NCBI RefSeq assembly: GCF_050920415.1
Contig: NZ_CP169309.1
DNA length: 64,000 nt
Strand: one strand, 5' to 3'
DNA from: Escherichia coli
GTDB taxonomy: Bacteria > Pseudomonadota > Gammaproteobacteria > Enterobacterales > Enterobacteriaceae
Made by a program: the position numbers and the translations under genes. A model generated the notes under the pieces. The model ran no database searches and was not told the origin of the DNA. It worked only from the letters and a program-made list of their open reading frames with translations. Each line of letters begins with the position of its first letter. The first letter of the stretch is position 1. Below are positions 2,020 through 10,342 of this stretch, piece after piece.

Positions 2020-3558
2020 ATGACCAATAATCCCCCTTCAGCACAGATTAAGCCCGGCGAGTATGGTTTCCCCCTCAAGTTAAAAGCCCGCTACGACAAC
2101 TTTATTGGCGGCGAATGGGTAGCCCCTGCCGACGGCGAGTATTACCAGAACCTGACGCCGGTGACCGGGCAGCTACTGTGCGAAGTGGCGTCTTCGGGCA
2201 AACGAGACATCGATCTGGCGCTGGATGCTGCGCATAAAGTGAAAGATAAATGGGCGCATACTTCGGTGCAGGATCGCGCGGCGATTCTGTTTAAGATTGC
2301 CGATCGAATGGAGCAGAACCTCGAACTTTTAGCGACGGCTGAAACCTGGGATAACGGCAAACCCATTCGCGAAACCAGTGCTGCTGATGTACCGCTGGCG
2401 ATTGACCACTTCCGCTATTTCGCCTCGTGTATTCGGGCGCAGGAAGGCGGTATTAGCGAAGTGGATAGCGAAACCGTGGCTTATCACTTCCACGAACCGT
2501 TAGGCGTGGTGGGGCAGATTATCCCGTGGAACTTCCCGCTGTTGATGGCGAGCTGGAAAATGGCTCCCGCGCTGGCGGCGGGCAACTGTGTGGTGCTGAA
2601 ACCCGCACGTCTTACCCCGCTTTCTGTACTGCTGCTAATGGAAATCGTTGGTGATTTACTGCCGCCGGGCGTGGTGAACGTGGTTAACGGCGCTGGTGGG
2701 GAAATTGGCGAATATCTGGCGACCTCGAAACGCATCGCCAAAGTGGCGTTTACCGGCTCAACGGAAGTGGGCCAACAAATTATGCAGTACGCCACGCAAA
2801 ATATTATTCCGGTAACCCTGGAACTGGGCGGCAAGTCGCCAAATATCTTCTTTGCTGATGTGATGGATGAAGAAGATGCCTTTTTCGATAAAGCGCTGGA
2901 AGGCTTTGCACTGTTTGCTTTTAACCAGGGCGAAGTTTGCACCTGTCCAAGTCGTGCCTTAGTGCAGGAGTCAATCTACGAACGCTTTATGGAGCGCGCC
3001 ATCCGCCGTGTCGAAAGCATTCGCAGCGGTAACCCGCTCGATAGCGTGACGCAAATGGGGGCGCAGGTTTCTCACGGGCAACTGGAAACCATCCTCAATT
3101 ACATTGATATCGGTAAAAAAGAGGGTGCTGACGTGCTCACCGGTGGGCGGCGCAAGCTGCTGGAAGGCGAACTGAAAGACGGCTACTACCTCGAACCGAC
3201 GATTCTGTTTGGTCAGAATAATATGCGCGTGTTCCAGGAAGAAATTTTTGGTCCGGTGCTGGCGGTAACCACCTTCAAAACGATGGATGAGGCGCTGGAG
3301 CTGGCGAACGACACGCAATATGGCCTGGGGGCTGGTGTCTGGAGCCGCAACGGTAATCTGGCCTATAAGATGGGGCGCGGTATTCAGGCAGGGCGCGTGT
3401 GGACCAACTGTTATCACGCTTACCCGGCACATGCGGCGTTTGGCGGCTACAAACAATCAGGTATCGGCCGTGAAACCCACAAGATGATGCTGGAGCATTA
3501 CCAGCAAACCAAGTGCCTGCTGGTGAGCTACTCAGATAAACCGTTGGGGCTGTTCTGA
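2020..3558 (+). CDS. aldB: Aldehyde dehydrogenase B
   Basis: 512-aa product starting MTNNPPSAQ with RBS AGGAGA upstream; aldehyde dehydrogenase motifs; tool ORF 1846..3558 carries an upstream in-frame extension. Confidence 0.9.
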
Positions 3559-3570
3559 TGTAAGAAGCTG

Positions 3571-3601
3571 GTCGCATCGGGTATTCATTGCCTGATGCGA
3601 C
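3571..3601 (+). terminator. Hairpin after aldB (gtcgcatc...gatgcgac), putative terminator or REP-like element
   Basis: 8-bp inverted repeat immediately after the aldB stop. Confidence 0.4.
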
Positions 3602-3835
3602 GCTTTCGCGTTTTACCAATTCAAATGTCTACGTCTTGAATGACTGAATATTGATTGAACTTAATTACGAGTCTCCTCGCATCTTTTCAACAAGTTACTG
3701 CACACCGTTATTCTTCTTCCGAACGGCATTCCTGAGTCAACTTTATCTCCCTGACGGCCCATATAAATCGCGCTATCGTGATTGTTATTGCTAAGTGTGT
3801 GTGTATCGTGTGTATAATCATGGAAGGGCAGGGAT

Positions 3836-4021
3836 GTGAAAAGTGCAGACGTGATCGCCATCCTGAAGCAGCATGGCTGGGAACATATTCGAACCCGTGG
3901 TAGTCATCATCAGTTCCGCCACCCTGTCCATCCGGGTCTGGTGACGGTTCCGCACCCTAAAAAAGATATTAAGCCCGGTACGCTGGCGCAAATTGGGCGT
4001 CAGGCTGGTTTAACATTTTAA
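3836..4021 (+). CDS. HicA-family (YcfA-like) toxin-like small protein, type II toxin-antitoxin
   Basis: 61-aa ORF, GTG start, with GW..R.RGSHH.F.HP...TVPHP.KD...GTL..I..QAGL pattern typical of HicA; TATAAT at 3813-3818 upstream; immediately followed by a HicB-like ORF. Confidence 0.7.
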   Translation: MKSADVIAILKQHGWEHIRTRGSHHQFRHPVHPGLVTVPHPKKDIKPGTLAQIGRQAGLTF

Positions 4022-4037
4022 AATTTCAGGAGGCAAT

Positions 4038-4448
4038 ATGTTTTATCCCGCCTATATCCACAGTGATCCTGACGGCAGCGCCAGCGGTTTTTTCCCTGAT
4101 GTTCCAGGCTGTTATTTTGCTGGTGATACGCTGGACAACGCTTTCCAGGATGCGCGAAGTGCACTGGTCGCGCACTTCGAAACCTTATGCGAGATGAATG
4201 AAGAGTTGCCGCTTCCAGGCTCTGTGGAAACACATCTGGTCCAGCGTGCGCAGGACTTTATTGGCGGGCAATGGTTGCTGGTGGATATCAATATGAATCA
4301 GTTCGAAGGTCGGGCTGAACGTATCAATATTACGATGCCGAAAAGATTACTGAACAAGATTGATACCTACGTGCGCAATAACCCAGACTACGCCAACAGA
4401 AGTGCGTTTCTGGCGGAAGCTGCCCGGCGTGTATTGCCGGGCGTTTAA
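4038..4448 (+). CDS. HicB-family antitoxin-like protein with C-terminal ribbon-helix-helix DNA-binding region
   Basis: 136-aa ORF 16 nt after the HicA-like gene, RBS AGGAGG; C-terminal segment ITMPKRLLNKID...RSAFLAEAARRVL resembles an RHH motif. Confidence 0.7.
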   Translation: MFYPAYIHSDPDGSASGFFPDVPGCYFAGDTLDNAFQDARSALVAHFETLCEMNEELPLPGSVETHLVQRAQDFIGGQWLLVDINMNQFEGRAERINITMPKRLLNKIDTYVRNNPDYANRSAFLAEAARRVLPGV

Positions 4449-4780
4449 TCTCGCGTTTCGATGGTGAGCGGGCGGACCAGGCTGTACAGCCACAGACCAA
4501 AACAAGCGATGGTGCCAATCACCACGGTGAGGAACACACTGACTGACAGGCCTGCAAGCAATCCCGCAGGCAGGGCCAGCAGGCCGTGGATCACGGTGTC
4601 GTTCCATCTCACCTGATCGTAGCCAAACATGCCTAAAACGCCGCAAACCAGACCGTAAATCACCATTGGTGTTCCGAGGCCAATCAGCAATAAACGGTAG
4701 ATAATTGAAGGTTTAATACGCTTTATCTGTACTGTGGATGTTTTACTGGGGTTATTCATTAGTTTGGTCAATAGTTCCAT
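4445..4780 (-). CDS. Hypothetical small inner-membrane protein (about 111 aa, 2-3 predicted TM segments)
   Basis: ORF with long hydrophobic stretches; start uncertain (ATG at 4780 or 4828); no clear RBS. Confidence 0.35.
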   Translation of the reverse strand: MELLTKLMNNPSKTSTVQIKRIKPSIIYRLLLIGLGTPMVIYGLVCGVLGMFGYDQVRWNDTVIHGLLALPAGLLAGLSVSVFLTVVIGTIACFGLWLYSLVRPLTIETRD

Positions 4781-4941
4781 TATTTCAATATGATAAACCT
4801 CGACCTGTTGAAAAGCCAGGTAGCACACTTCAGAAAGTATATAAAAAACAATATGTCGTTATATAAATAAGGAAATTGCACTGCATCATGGCATTTCATA
4901 ATATGCGTTAATTGTTCTTTTTTATATTCTCTGAGGGAAAT

Positions 4942-5265
4942 ATGTTCCTGGACTATTTTGCACTGGGAGTGCTTATTTTTGTATTTCTGGTGATATTCTA
5001 TGGGATTATTATTTTACATGATATTCCCTACCTGATTGCTAAAAAACGTAATCATCCTCATGCCGACGCCATTCATGTTGCTGGTTGGGTGAGTCTTTTT
5101 ACGCTGCATGTTATCTGGCCATTTTTGTGGATTTGGGCCACGCTTTACCACCCGGAGCGGGGATGGGGAATGCAAAACCATGACTCCTCCGTTGTGCAAC
5201 TACAACAGCGTATTGCCGGGCTGGAGAAACAGCTCGCCGACATCAAATCCTCTTCTGCCGAGTAA
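4942..5265 (+). CDS. yiaW: DUF3302-family inner membrane protein
   Basis: 107-aa hydrophobic protein immediately upstream of the HlyD-family yiaV, arrangement as in K-12 yiaWV. Confidence 0.8.
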
Positions 5266-8294: not shown

Positions 8295-8374
8295 GCTTGA
8301 TAAGACGCGTTAAGCGTCGCATCAGGCAATGTGCACCCTACGTTGGATGCGGCGCGAGCGCCTTATCCAACCTA
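8295..8374. repeat. REP/BIME-type palindromic units (two inverted REP-like copies)
   Basis: gcttgataagacgcg...gcgtcgcatcaggca and gttggatgcggcg...gccttatccaacctac palindromes. Confidence 0.5.
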
Positions 8375-10342
8375 CGGATGGCAATGCTTTTCCTCATTCA
8401 CCCAGATCCGCATTTCGCCTTCACCCCGGTTAGCCCAGCTAAACCACGGGATAAATGTCAGAGTTTGCGGCTGGCGTTTGGCTGGCGCGCTGTCGTAATG
8501 CCACAGCGGTTGCTGCTCTGGATTGCTCTGTTCATACCGGTAACCCGGTGCCTGGATTAAGATCTTATGGCGGAACAATCCATTACCTTCAAATGTCGTA
8601 AATGGCGCATCGGCGGGCAGCCACAGGTTATGCAGTGACTCGCCGTTGTCGGCCTGTTCCAGGCAATACACCAGCGGGCCGCGCTGAATCGCCACTTTTC
8701 CGGCGACGTGACGCACCAGCGGGTTACCGTAAACGCGACGTACCGGCATTGGCAAAGTCAGATTCAGCGTGTCGCCCTCCTGCCATTCGCGGGTAATGTG
8801 CAAATACCCTTTACGAATATCCTGCTCGACCTCTTCCCCATTCAATGTAATCTGCGGCTGTGTGCACCAGTCCGGCAGACGTAAAGCCAGCGTATGACGC
8901 ACCGGCTGGGGCGATTCAACCGCAATTGTCACCTGTTCCTGCCACGGATAGTTTCCGCTAACCCGCAGACGCAGCGTGCCATTTTCTACCGGCACTTCCA
9001 TGCTGTTTCCTGCGTAGATGTTGATATACAACGCATCTTCACGCGGCGTGTAGAGATAATGACCAATCGAGGTTAGCACGCGGGCGATATTTGGCGGACA
9101 ACAAGCGCAACCAAACCAACGCTGGCGGATCGGCTTAACGTGATCGTAGATATGGTTGAATTTCAGCGATTTTGGATGTACTTCCAGCGGATTCACATAG
9201 AAGAAATGTTTGCCATCCAGCGCCATGCCGCCGAGCACGGTGTTGTACAGTGCGCGCTCCATCACATCGGCATATTGACTGTCGCCTTCCATTTCCAGCA
9301 TTCGCCGGGCGAACATCATCAGGCCGATGGAAGCACAGCTTTCGGCGTATACCGTGTCATTCGGCAGATCGTAATCGCTGCTGAACGCTTCGCCGCTGCT
9401 TTGTGAGCCAATGCCGCCGGTAATATATAACTGACGCTGGGCCATATTGTTCCACAGCCGCAGGCAGTCCTGACGCTTGCTTTCATCGTGACTTAAACGC
9501 GCGAGATGCGCGACGCCGGTCATCAGGTAGACAAAACGTACCGCGTGACCAATGGCAGTTTGCTGCTGTGCGATGGGCAAATGTGCCTGGCTGTAGGCTT
9601 TGTCTTTCACCATCCACGCCGGGCCGTAGGTGTGCCAGTGCGAGGTCTGCCCGCGCTTTTCATATTCCTGGTCGTAATAGTGCGGTTGCGCACCACGCTG
9701 TTCGACAAAATAGTTCGTCAGCGCCAGGTAGCGCGGCTCTTCGGTCACTTCATATAGGCGCATTAGTGCCAGTTCAATTTCCGGGTGACCAGGATAACCG
9801 TGTAACTTACTTTCACCTGGACCAAATACGCTGTCGATATGATCGGCCAGACGGCAAACCACTTCCAGCAAGCGCCGCTTGCCCGTGGCCTGGAAGAAGG
9901 CGACTCCGGCTTCAATCAGATGACCGGCGCAGTAAAGTTCATGACACTCCGCCAGATTGCTCCAGCGTTCTTCGGGCGTTTTTACCGTAAAGTAAGTATT
10001 GAGATAGCCATCTTCGCACTGGGCGGAAGCGACCAGTTCGATTACCTCGTCAGCAGTTTTTTCCAGTTCGGCATCCGGCTTCTGGCACAGCGACCAGGCT
10101 ACCGCTTCCAGCCATTTGGCGACGTCGCTGTCCTGAAACACCATCCCGTAAAATTCACCGTCTTGCAGTCCTGCGGCAATGCGAAAGTTTTCAATCGCAT
10201 GGCTGGGTTCCGCTTCTGGGATACGATCGTTCAAGGCATCCCACTGATAAGGAATCACCACGTCGCGGACCAGTTGTTGGTACTGACCGAGGAACGGATC
10301 GCTGACCGTCAGTTTATGCAGATCGACTTCCGAAATGTTCAT
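8372..10342 (-). CDS. Glycoside hydrolase family 127-like protein (DUF1680; beta-L-arabinofuranosidase HypBA1-like)
   Basis: 656-aa product from ATG at 10342 with AAGGAG RBS; contains E-x-C (E334, C336) and C-x-C-C (C412, C414, C415) motifs spaced like the zinc/nucleophile site of GH127; not in the K-12 sgbE-yiaT interval as I recall. Confidence 0.75.
   Translation of the reverse strand: MNISEVDLHKLTVSDPFLGQYQQLVRDVVIPYQWDALNDRIPEAEPSHAIENFRIAAGLQDGEFYGMVFQDSDVAKWLEAVAWSLCQKPDAELEKTADEVIELVASAQCEDGYLNTYFTVKTPEERWSNLAECHELYCAGHLIEAGVAFFQATGKRRLLEVVCRLADHIDSVFGPGESKLHGYPGHPEIELALMRLYEVTEEPRYLALTNYFVEQRGAQPHYYDQEYEKRGQTSHWHTYGPAWMVKDKAYSQAHLPIAQQQTAIGHAVRFVYLMTGVAHLARLSHDESKRQDCLRLWNNMAQRQLYITGGIGSQSSGEAFSSDYDLPNDTVYAESCASIGLMMFARRMLEMEGDSQYADVMERALYNTVLGGMALDGKHFFYVNPLEVHPKSLKFNHIYDHVKPIRQRWFGCACCPPNIARVLTSIGHYLYTPREDALYINIYAGNSMEVPVENGTLRLRVSGNYPWQEQVTIAVESPQPVRHTLALRLPDWCTQPQITLNGEEVEQDIRKGYLHITREWQEGDTLNLTLPMPVRRVYGNPLVRHVAGKVAIQRGPLVYCLEQADNGESLHNLWLPADAPFTTFEGNGLFRHKILIQAPGYRYEQSNPEQQPLWHYDSAPAKRQPQTLTFIPWFSWANRGEGEMRIWVNEEKHCHP

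Follow-up and report, generated by a model that had tools for sequence, protein, structure and literature searches.

The interval between aldB and yiaW in the Escherichia coli DNA analysed here (a stretch of 64,000 nucleotides of contig NZ_CP169309.1, referred to as the window) carries two genes that read as a HicAB toxin-antitoxin operon, followed by a convergent gene for a small membrane protein. The genes and their closest signals are the following:

3836-4021, plus strand: hicA, with a GTG start, for a 61-aa HicA toxin (by homology, an RNase with a dsRBD-like fold)
4022-4037: spacer of 16 nt between hicA and hicB
4028-4033, plus strand: Shine-Dalgarno sequence of hicB, consensus AGGAGG, 4 nt ahead of the ATG, read from the sequence
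4038-4448, plus strand: hicB, with an ATG start, for a 136-aa HicB antitoxin
4421-4443, plus strand: possible hicAB terminator, a terminator-like match made of a GC-rich hairpin in the final hicB codons and a moderately T-rich tract after it
4445-4759, minus strand: convergent membrane-protein gene (104 aa), a neighbour outside the hicAB module

The stop codons of hicB and of the membrane-protein gene overlap by 4 nt (4445-4448). The longest convergent open reading frame extends from 4445 to 4828 (127 aa), and the ATG at 4759 is favoured as the start by PGAP and by the orthologues in other genera. An earlier note had read from this DNA a TATAAT element, a 61-aa frame with a GTG start, a 136-aa frame 16 nt later and a convergent frame, and all of them were found where it had placed them. 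The hairpin at 4421-4443 has a predicted energy of -22.7 kcal/mol and a z of only -1.5 against shuffled sequences, that is, it is not significantly more stable than these, and we regard it as no more than a possible hicAB terminator. An Rfam scan of positions 3500-5000 at E<=1 returned zero RNA families.

It should be noted that the pair is already known: it is a routinely annotated accessory toxin-antitoxin module of E. coli and no new kind of system. In E. coli MFDS1022581, a stretch identical to the window has been annotated by RefSeq/PGAP, where the hicA product is named type II toxin-antitoxin system HicA family toxin (WP_000833473.1), the hicB product HicB family antitoxin (WP_000499744.1) and the product of the convergent gene hypothetical protein (WP_001064341.1). 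Our own NCBIfam search with the three proteins (HicA, HicB and the membrane protein) gave no match, despite the names that PGAP assigns to the pair, and Pfam was therefore used for family assignment. A literature search with the protein accessions and for this E. coli pair found no experimental study.

The proposal that the two frames encode a HicA and a HicB was borne out by the profile searches. The first product matched Pfam HicA_toxin (PF07927) with an E of 2.1e-23, residues 4-59 aligning on model positions 2-58 of 58, so that 56 of its 61 residues are spanned; on this match, the 61-aa protein can be assigned to the HicA toxin family. Its best PDB matches were the Burkholderia pseudomallei entries 4c26 and 6g26 (E ~1e-16, 31 identities in 59 aligned residues), and its Gly22-Ser23-His24 aligned with the GSA(H24A)H loop of 4c26. 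In B. pseudomallei, the HicA variants G22C and H24A are non-toxic, and Gly22 and His24 are needed for toxicity (PMC3969222). The GSH motif was present in 15 of 16 HicA sequences, namely that of the window and 15 orthologues from other genera; the exception is Enterobacter chuandaensis, with a proline in place of His24. By homology, then, the protein would be an active RNase.

The second product matched Pfam HicB_lk_antitox (PF15919) with an E of 9.1e-36 over residues 3-129 and all 123 model positions; like that of HicA, this match lies well outside what chance would give. In the PDB, it was closest to B. pseudomallei HicB (6g1n, E 2.8e-25, residues 2-133) and, in second place, to Yersinia pestis HicB3 (4p78, E 1.6e-21, residues 1-132). 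Both of these antitoxins end in a ribbon-helix-helix (RHH) domain (PMC11594946). An example of the C-terminal alignment with the two RHH HicBs is ERINITMPKRLLNKID against ERINVSIPRFVLHKID. Since these essentially full-length alignments pass through the RHH domain of 6g1n and 4p78, they support the RHH tail that had been proposed for this protein, and HicB would consist of an N-terminal HicA-binding domain of the partial RNase H-like type and a C-terminal RHH DNA-binding domain. The hicB gene lies directly 3' of hicA in one operon, and homology suggests that its product neutralises HicA.

The region upstream of hicA was studied by phylogenetic footprinting, in which 175 nt around the hicA start were compared among 15 species. 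The flanks were unalignable. Three blocks were nevertheless sharply conserved, and a putative ribosome-binding element follows them:

3729-3734, plus strand: block TTCCTG, with columns invariant or nearly so in the 15 species
3769-3782, plus strand: block with the consensus GCGCTAnnGTGAT, a phylogenetic footprint and a candidate binding site for a regulator or for HicB
3799-3818, plus strand: promoter core GTGTGTATnnTGTGTATAAT, nearly invariant in the 15 species, a candidate HicB operator
3822-3828, plus strand: Shine-Dalgarno-like GGAAGGG, separated by 7 nt from the GTG of hicA, with AAGG kept in most species

The promoter core has the form GTGTGTAT-nn-TGTGTATAAT and contains two direct TGTGTAT repeats (3800-3806 and 3809-3815, 9 nt from start to start), the second of which overlaps the -10 hexamer TATAAT at 3813-3818. 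A strict sigma-70 scan called no promoter at 3813, with no acceptable -35 at 16-18 nt upstream. The near invariance of TGTGTATAAT across 15 species whose flanks can no longer be aligned nevertheless argues that the TATAAT at 3813 is a real, conserved -10 element. As for the second block, a CRP or CRP-S site at GCGCTAnnGTGAT was considered and dropped, as a second half-site was neither present nor conserved.

The HicB operators of Y. pestis and B. pseudomallei overlap the -10 element (PMC11594946), and the TGTGTAT repeats over the -10 are our tentative candidate for the HicB operator. We keep this assignment tentative because the conserved repeats are direct and no strong palindrome accompanies them. 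Searches for a palindromic operator returned nothing beyond the hairpin of the aldB terminator (3571-3601) and, in E. coli, a weak, imperfect palindrome with 7-nt arms at 3766-3783, AATCGCG-CTAT-CGTGATT, which is formed by the second conserved block and is the only inverted repeat within 3700-3840; nothing comparable lies over the -10. HicAB autoregulation as such, like the identity of the operator, is proposed here by homology.

The -10 element ends only 17 nt from the hicA GTG. A transcript from it would begin at about 3824-3825 (~7 nt downstream), with GGAAGGG, the only Shine-Dalgarno-like element ahead of hicA, at or near its 5' end. The leader and start region of hicA showed no unusual RNA fold (z +0.6 against shuffles). 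The GTG start was found in 16 of 16 hicA genes. Compared with the AGGAGG and ATG of hicB, the GTG and the weak leader Shine-Dalgarno of hicA probably hold HicA translation low. In the K-12 hicAB operon, the mRNA from the HicB-repressed promoter P2 is cut short at the ribosome-binding site of hicA and yields only HicB (PMC7167474).

Taken together, we interpret the module as a classical type II toxin-antitoxin operon on the chromosome, a member of the HicAB family and of its RHH-antitoxin subclass, with a probability of roughly 0.88. According to this model, free HicA, a small RNase that has a dsRBD-like fold and acts independently of the ribosome, would cleave mRNA and cause growth arrest, while the N-terminal domain of HicB would bind HicA and mask its active site. 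Dimeric HicB would bind the hicAB promoter through its C-terminal RHH domain and repress it, and an excess of HicA would relieve this repression. Expression signals shared by the different genera would keep toxin output below antitoxin output.

The distribution of the pair was evaluated in 5426 complete E. coli genomes with positions 3836-4360 as the query, counting as present only full-length matches of >=95% identity. An intact hicAB was found in 505 genomes (~9%), in 501 of them at >=99% identity, and all 505 copies are chromosomal and single. The suspected strain variability of the module was thus confirmed. At least five states of the aldB locus could be distinguished among E. coli:

State A (the window): aldB-hicA-hicB-membrane gene-yiaWVUT-GH127, in 15 genomes
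State B: aldB-hicA-hicB-GH127, in most of the other ~490 hicAB carriers, e.g. KTa008
State C: K-12, BL21, ~3770 genomes; a REP junction as in state D and two further deletions
State D: EC26, and inferred for the 12 genomes with a complete membrane gene but no full state-A match
State E: aldB directly adjoining GH127, e.g. DSM 111506

Homology between state B and the window reaches 4473, thereby taking in 29 nt at the 3' end of the membrane gene, and resumes at ~8298; from this break and resumption, state B derives from an A-like ancestor by a deletion of ~3.8 kb. In state D, a REP element stands in place of hicA and the first two-thirds of hicB; what remains is ~80 nt at the 3' end of hicB, together with the complete membrane gene and yiaW. 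In state C, the hicB remnant has additionally lost 12 nt, and the membrane gene has lost 171 nt in frame, with the imperfect direct repeat CCAGnCnGTA on both sides of the missing part, which leaves a 47-codon open reading frame. In agreement with the expectation that K-12 has no intact genes here, MG1655 has zero annotated genes between yiaW and aldB, only remnants.

The earlier note had described the module as inserted between aldB and yiaW. This part of its description did not hold. K-12 and BL21 keep a ~80-nt 3' remnant of hicB beside the REP element, and orthologues occupy the same locus in ~10 other genera; hence hicAB is ancestral at this place and has been lost repeatedly and piecemeal in E. 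coli. The window carries the most complete surviving arrangement of the aldB/GH127 locus. A plasmid origin of hicAB was also rejected: in the plasmid collection, matches at >=99% were limited to mislabelled 4.9-Mb chromosomes, and no close copy was found on a true plasmid of that collection, where the best was 58% identical.

The plasmid search is also relevant to the possibility that hicAB serves primarily in anti-phage abortive infection rather than as a stress or housekeeping toxin-antitoxin system. A recent survey of HicA contexts has proposed that HicA modules serve predominantly in phage defence (PMC10865869), which speaks for such a role. Against it, besides the lack of close plasmid copies, stands the neighbourhood, which is metabolic (aldB, yiaWVUT, GH127/MFS) and neither a defence island nor a prophage. 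The PADLOC-DB 2.0 models matched none of the three proteins; it should be noted that this absence says nothing against the HicAB identity and simply gives no support for a defence role. Overall, we consider a primarily anti-phage function rather unlikely.

Outside E. coli, HicB orthologues of 69-86% identity were found, in a scan of one genome per species, in Pseudocitrobacter, several Enterobacter species, Lelliottia, Phytobacter, Trabulsiella, Yokenella, Pluralibacter, a Citrobacter sp., 'Escherichia sp. ESNIH1' and Serratia silvae, and distant relatives (37-46% identity) in Pasteurellaceae and Oxalobacteraceae. In most of these enterobacterial genera, hicAB is just upstream of the GH127 gene and convergent with it. 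The left neighbour varies (aldB, yiaT or selB). In Enterobacter, Lelliottia and Pseudocitrobacter, yiaU-yiaT (in Pseudocitrobacter also yiaV) lie between aldB and hicA, and in Escherichia the yiaWVUT block is located between the membrane gene and GH127.

Both hicA and hicB were intact at 15 orthologous loci of other genera. The dN values against E. coli were 0.15-0.27 for hicA (0.49 for Serratia silvae) and 0.10-0.25 for hicB, with dS saturated in both cases; the two genes are under strong purifying selection across genera. At four further loci (L005, L014, L015 and L022), hicA is frameshifted, truncated or missing and hicB is intact, and no locus examined had an intact hicA with a broken hicB. 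This order of loss, with hicA going first and never the reverse, is the one expected for an active toxin.

These data also bear on whether the intact genes might form a silent module, that is, a leftover with a poorly expressed or attenuated toxin, heading for deletion and with no present role. Such an idea draws on the absence of hicAB from ~90% of E. coli genomes, which have lost it through three or more distinct deletions, on the broken hicA of several species and the change of His24 to proline in Enterobacter chuandaensis, and on the weak expression signals of hicA (GTG start and short leader). The purifying selection on both genes speaks against it, as do the nearly invariant promoter block, the intact catalytic residues of HicA and the state of the E. 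coli copies, all 505 of which span the full length at >=95% identity. We therefore hold a silent module to be clearly improbable, and retain the functional toxin-antitoxin operon as our interpretation.

The convergent gene is real and conserved: it has orthologues of 103-105 aa in Escherichia clades, in E. whittamii, in Pseudocitrobacter and in Enterobacter-like genomes, with 38 invariant residues and a dN/dS of 0.09-0.32. An AlphaFold2 model from a shallow alignment shows helices at residues 17-47 and 59-95 and short terminal strands (mean pLDDT 72), and hydropathy agrees; the 104-aa product would be an inner-membrane protein, with a two-helix hairpin as its predicted fold. A profile search with this protein gathered 315 cluster representatives at E<=1e-3, mostly of ~100 aa and matched over their full length; no significant Pfam or NCBIfam family was obtained for them. 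The 104-aa protein itself matched nothing in Pfam, NCBIfam or PADLOC. From the E. coli data alone, the gene had seemed to travel with yiaW; this was revised, since other genera place it beside hicB or aldB without yiaW.

A less conventional reading would couple the membrane gene to hicAB, for example through antisense transcription into hicB that shifts the toxin:antitoxin ratio, and, separately, would take the TGTGTAT repeats as a non-palindromic operator and the transcript as starting at the hicA Shine-Dalgarno, with mainly antitoxin being made. We judge it very improbable. The earlier note had gone in a similar direction by suggesting that the membrane protein might be associated with the pair, and this suggestion was not sustained. 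The membrane gene is found without hicAB at L007, at L009, in E. whittamii (L039) and in E. coli EC26, and hicAB is found without the membrane gene in state B (~490 genomes of E. coli) and in most other genera, with no fewer than 11 species outside E. coli; in addition, none of five distant members of the membrane-protein family that were examined has a HicAB neighbour, their neighbours being unrelated. As each gene set occurs without the other, the membrane protein is an independent neighbour and no third component, and the consistent co-occurrence that a three-component toxin-antitoxin system with a membrane partner would display was not observed. For these reasons, and because no known HicA class has a membrane partner (PMC10865869), we give hardly any credence to a three-part unit of hicA, hicB and the membrane gene, with the membrane protein acting as effector or sensor, or its transcript as an antisense regulator of hicB where the 3' ends overlap. 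In favour of such a unit are the stop codons of hicB and the membrane gene, which overlap or almost touch in Escherichia and in Pseudocitrobacter, the short distance between the genes in Enterobacter sp. kpr-6 and in a related MAG, and the internal order of the hicAB-membrane block, which is kept although the yiaWVUT block is found on one or the other side of it depending on the genus.

The classical HicAB operon that we favour is of modest use in three respects. The window serves as a reference for reading the aldB-yiaW intergenic region of K-12, where a hicB remnant and a truncated gene for a small membrane protein can be recognised. The RHH-type HicAB of E. coli, for which the literature search found no experimental study, has a sharply conserved promoter block that would ease operator mapping. 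The neighbouring small membrane protein represents a sizeable family without a Pfam or NCBIfam model.

Among the known systems, the B. pseudomallei HicAB (PDB 4C26, 6G1N and 6G26; Butt 2014, Winter 2018) is the closest. It shares with the window pair the order of hicA and then hicB, the sizes and the domain architecture (a dsRBD-like HicA, and a HicB with toxin-binding and RHH domains); it provides the best PDB match for both E. coli proteins, and the HicA residues Gly22 and His24 are conserved between them. On the other hand, identity is only ~50% for HicA and roughly 40% for HicB, and in B. pseudomallei one palindrome over the -10 serves as the operator (PMC11594946), whereas the window has direct TGTGTAT repeats and no strong palindrome. 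The same difference separates the window pair from characterised HicB systems with a strong palindromic operator. The Y. pestis HicA3-HicB3 system (PDB 4P78, 4P7D) is similar in its RHH HicB, its enterobacterial chromosome and its operator BS2, located over the -10 (PMC11594946). Unlike in the window, however, its hicA3-hicB3 gap is 174 bp (PMC11594946) instead of 16 nt, and HicA3 matches the window HicA only weakly (E 1e-4).

The K-12 HicAB (b4532/b1438; PDB 6HPB) resembles the window pair in family, in its reversed, toxin-first order and in general logic, and the -10 of the window, placed 17 nt from the GTG, could give a truncated transcript analogous to that of the K-12 promoter P2 (PMC7167474). 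The two pairs are nonetheless distinct, as the earlier note had stated. The K-12 HicA has no significant BLASTP similarity to the window HicA; the K-12 HicB carries a C-terminal HTH instead of an RHH domain and could be aligned only over residues 1-66, with 33% identity; and the K-12 hicAB occupies another chromosomal locus, at 1.51 Mb. The window pair does not belong to the K-12 type of HicAB, the HTH subclass or class 3, with an Xre-type HTH in HicB. In the classification of Gerdes (2024), classical hicAB with an RHH antitoxin forms class 4 (PMC10865869), and the domain logic of RHH HicBs has been reviewed (PMC11594946, PMC10865869). Judged by its domains, the pair described here is a class 4 hicAB operon of the RHH subclass.

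The comparison of loci showed that, in the K-12-type genomes, a REP element (GCCGGATAAGGCGT..ACGCCGCATCCGGCA) has taken the place of hicA and the 5' two-thirds of hicB, and therefore the aldB-yiaW intergenic region of K-12 consists of a hicB remnant plus REP. The regions involved in this and in the other comparisons are the following:

BL21 (L003) 2405-2500 and EC26 (L011), against window 3619-4364: replacement of hicA and part of hicB by REP
Window 3834-3839: minimal start-stop ATG-TGA (ATGTGA), overlapping the hicA GTG start
Window 4445-4759, minus strand: gene for a 104-aa two-helix membrane protein (K-12 comparison regions L004 3714-3823 and 3421-3728)
Window 8372-10342, minus strand: GH127 gene (beta-L-arabinofuranosidase-like), intact and lying downstream of yiaT
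L005 5763-6100, L014 169-350, L015 and L022 2903-2977: orphan hicB loci with decayed hicA
L023 2801-2986: Enterobacter chuandaensis HicA orthologue with altered catalytic site

The deletion junction at hicAB is identical in EC26 (state D, with the full membrane-protein gene) and in the genomes with the shortened gene (state C), which implies that one single deletion event gave rise to both. The shortening is an in-frame deletion of 171 nt, bordered by the imperfect direct repeat CCAGnCnGTA and present in about 3770 of the 5426 complete E. coli genomes, K-12 and BL21 among them; the full-length gene is kept in only 27 of the 5426. What remains is an ORF of 47 codons, annotated by PGAP in BL21 (WP_001066080.1) and without annotation in MG1655. 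No model for this membrane-protein family was found in Pfam or NCBIfam, and its size is 315 cluster representatives (E<=1e-3).

At other loci, hicA decayed and hicB stayed intact: hicA is disrupted in L005, where the C-terminal 'RQAGIKK' is its sole trace, frameshifted in Escherichia sp. E1V33, absent in L015 and truncated in L022. The hicB of E. chuandaensis is also intact, and in its HicA the catalytic His24 is changed to Pro (GSPH vs GSHH); it may be a naturally detoxified toxin. Regarding the hicA start, the ATG of the minimal start-stop occurs in 13 of the 15 species, and the full ATGTGA likewise in 13; this could be a translational feature, or plain constraint of Shine-Dalgarno spacing and coding.

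The order aldB-hicA-hicB-GH127 (state B) was also found in a 1.2-kb contig labelled 'MAG: Collinsella sp.' (JAIJJM010000854.1), whose encoded proteins are 97-100% identical to those of E. coli state B; the contig is almost certainly a binning contaminant. At the GH127 position K-12 has only the ysaD pseudogene (L004 1-110), and strain DSM 111506 presents a frameshift in the GH127 gene and a Fic-family gene between yiaY and aldB.

When L015, L021-L023, L026, L027, L030 and L031 were compared with the window, yiaU-yiaT was located between aldB and hicA in Enterobacter and Lelliottia, as was yiaV-yiaU-yiaT in Pseudocitrobacter; in Escherichia, yiaWVUT lies between the membrane-protein gene and GH127. 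These gene orders indicate a relocation within the locus, either of the yia block or of the hicAB-membrane block.
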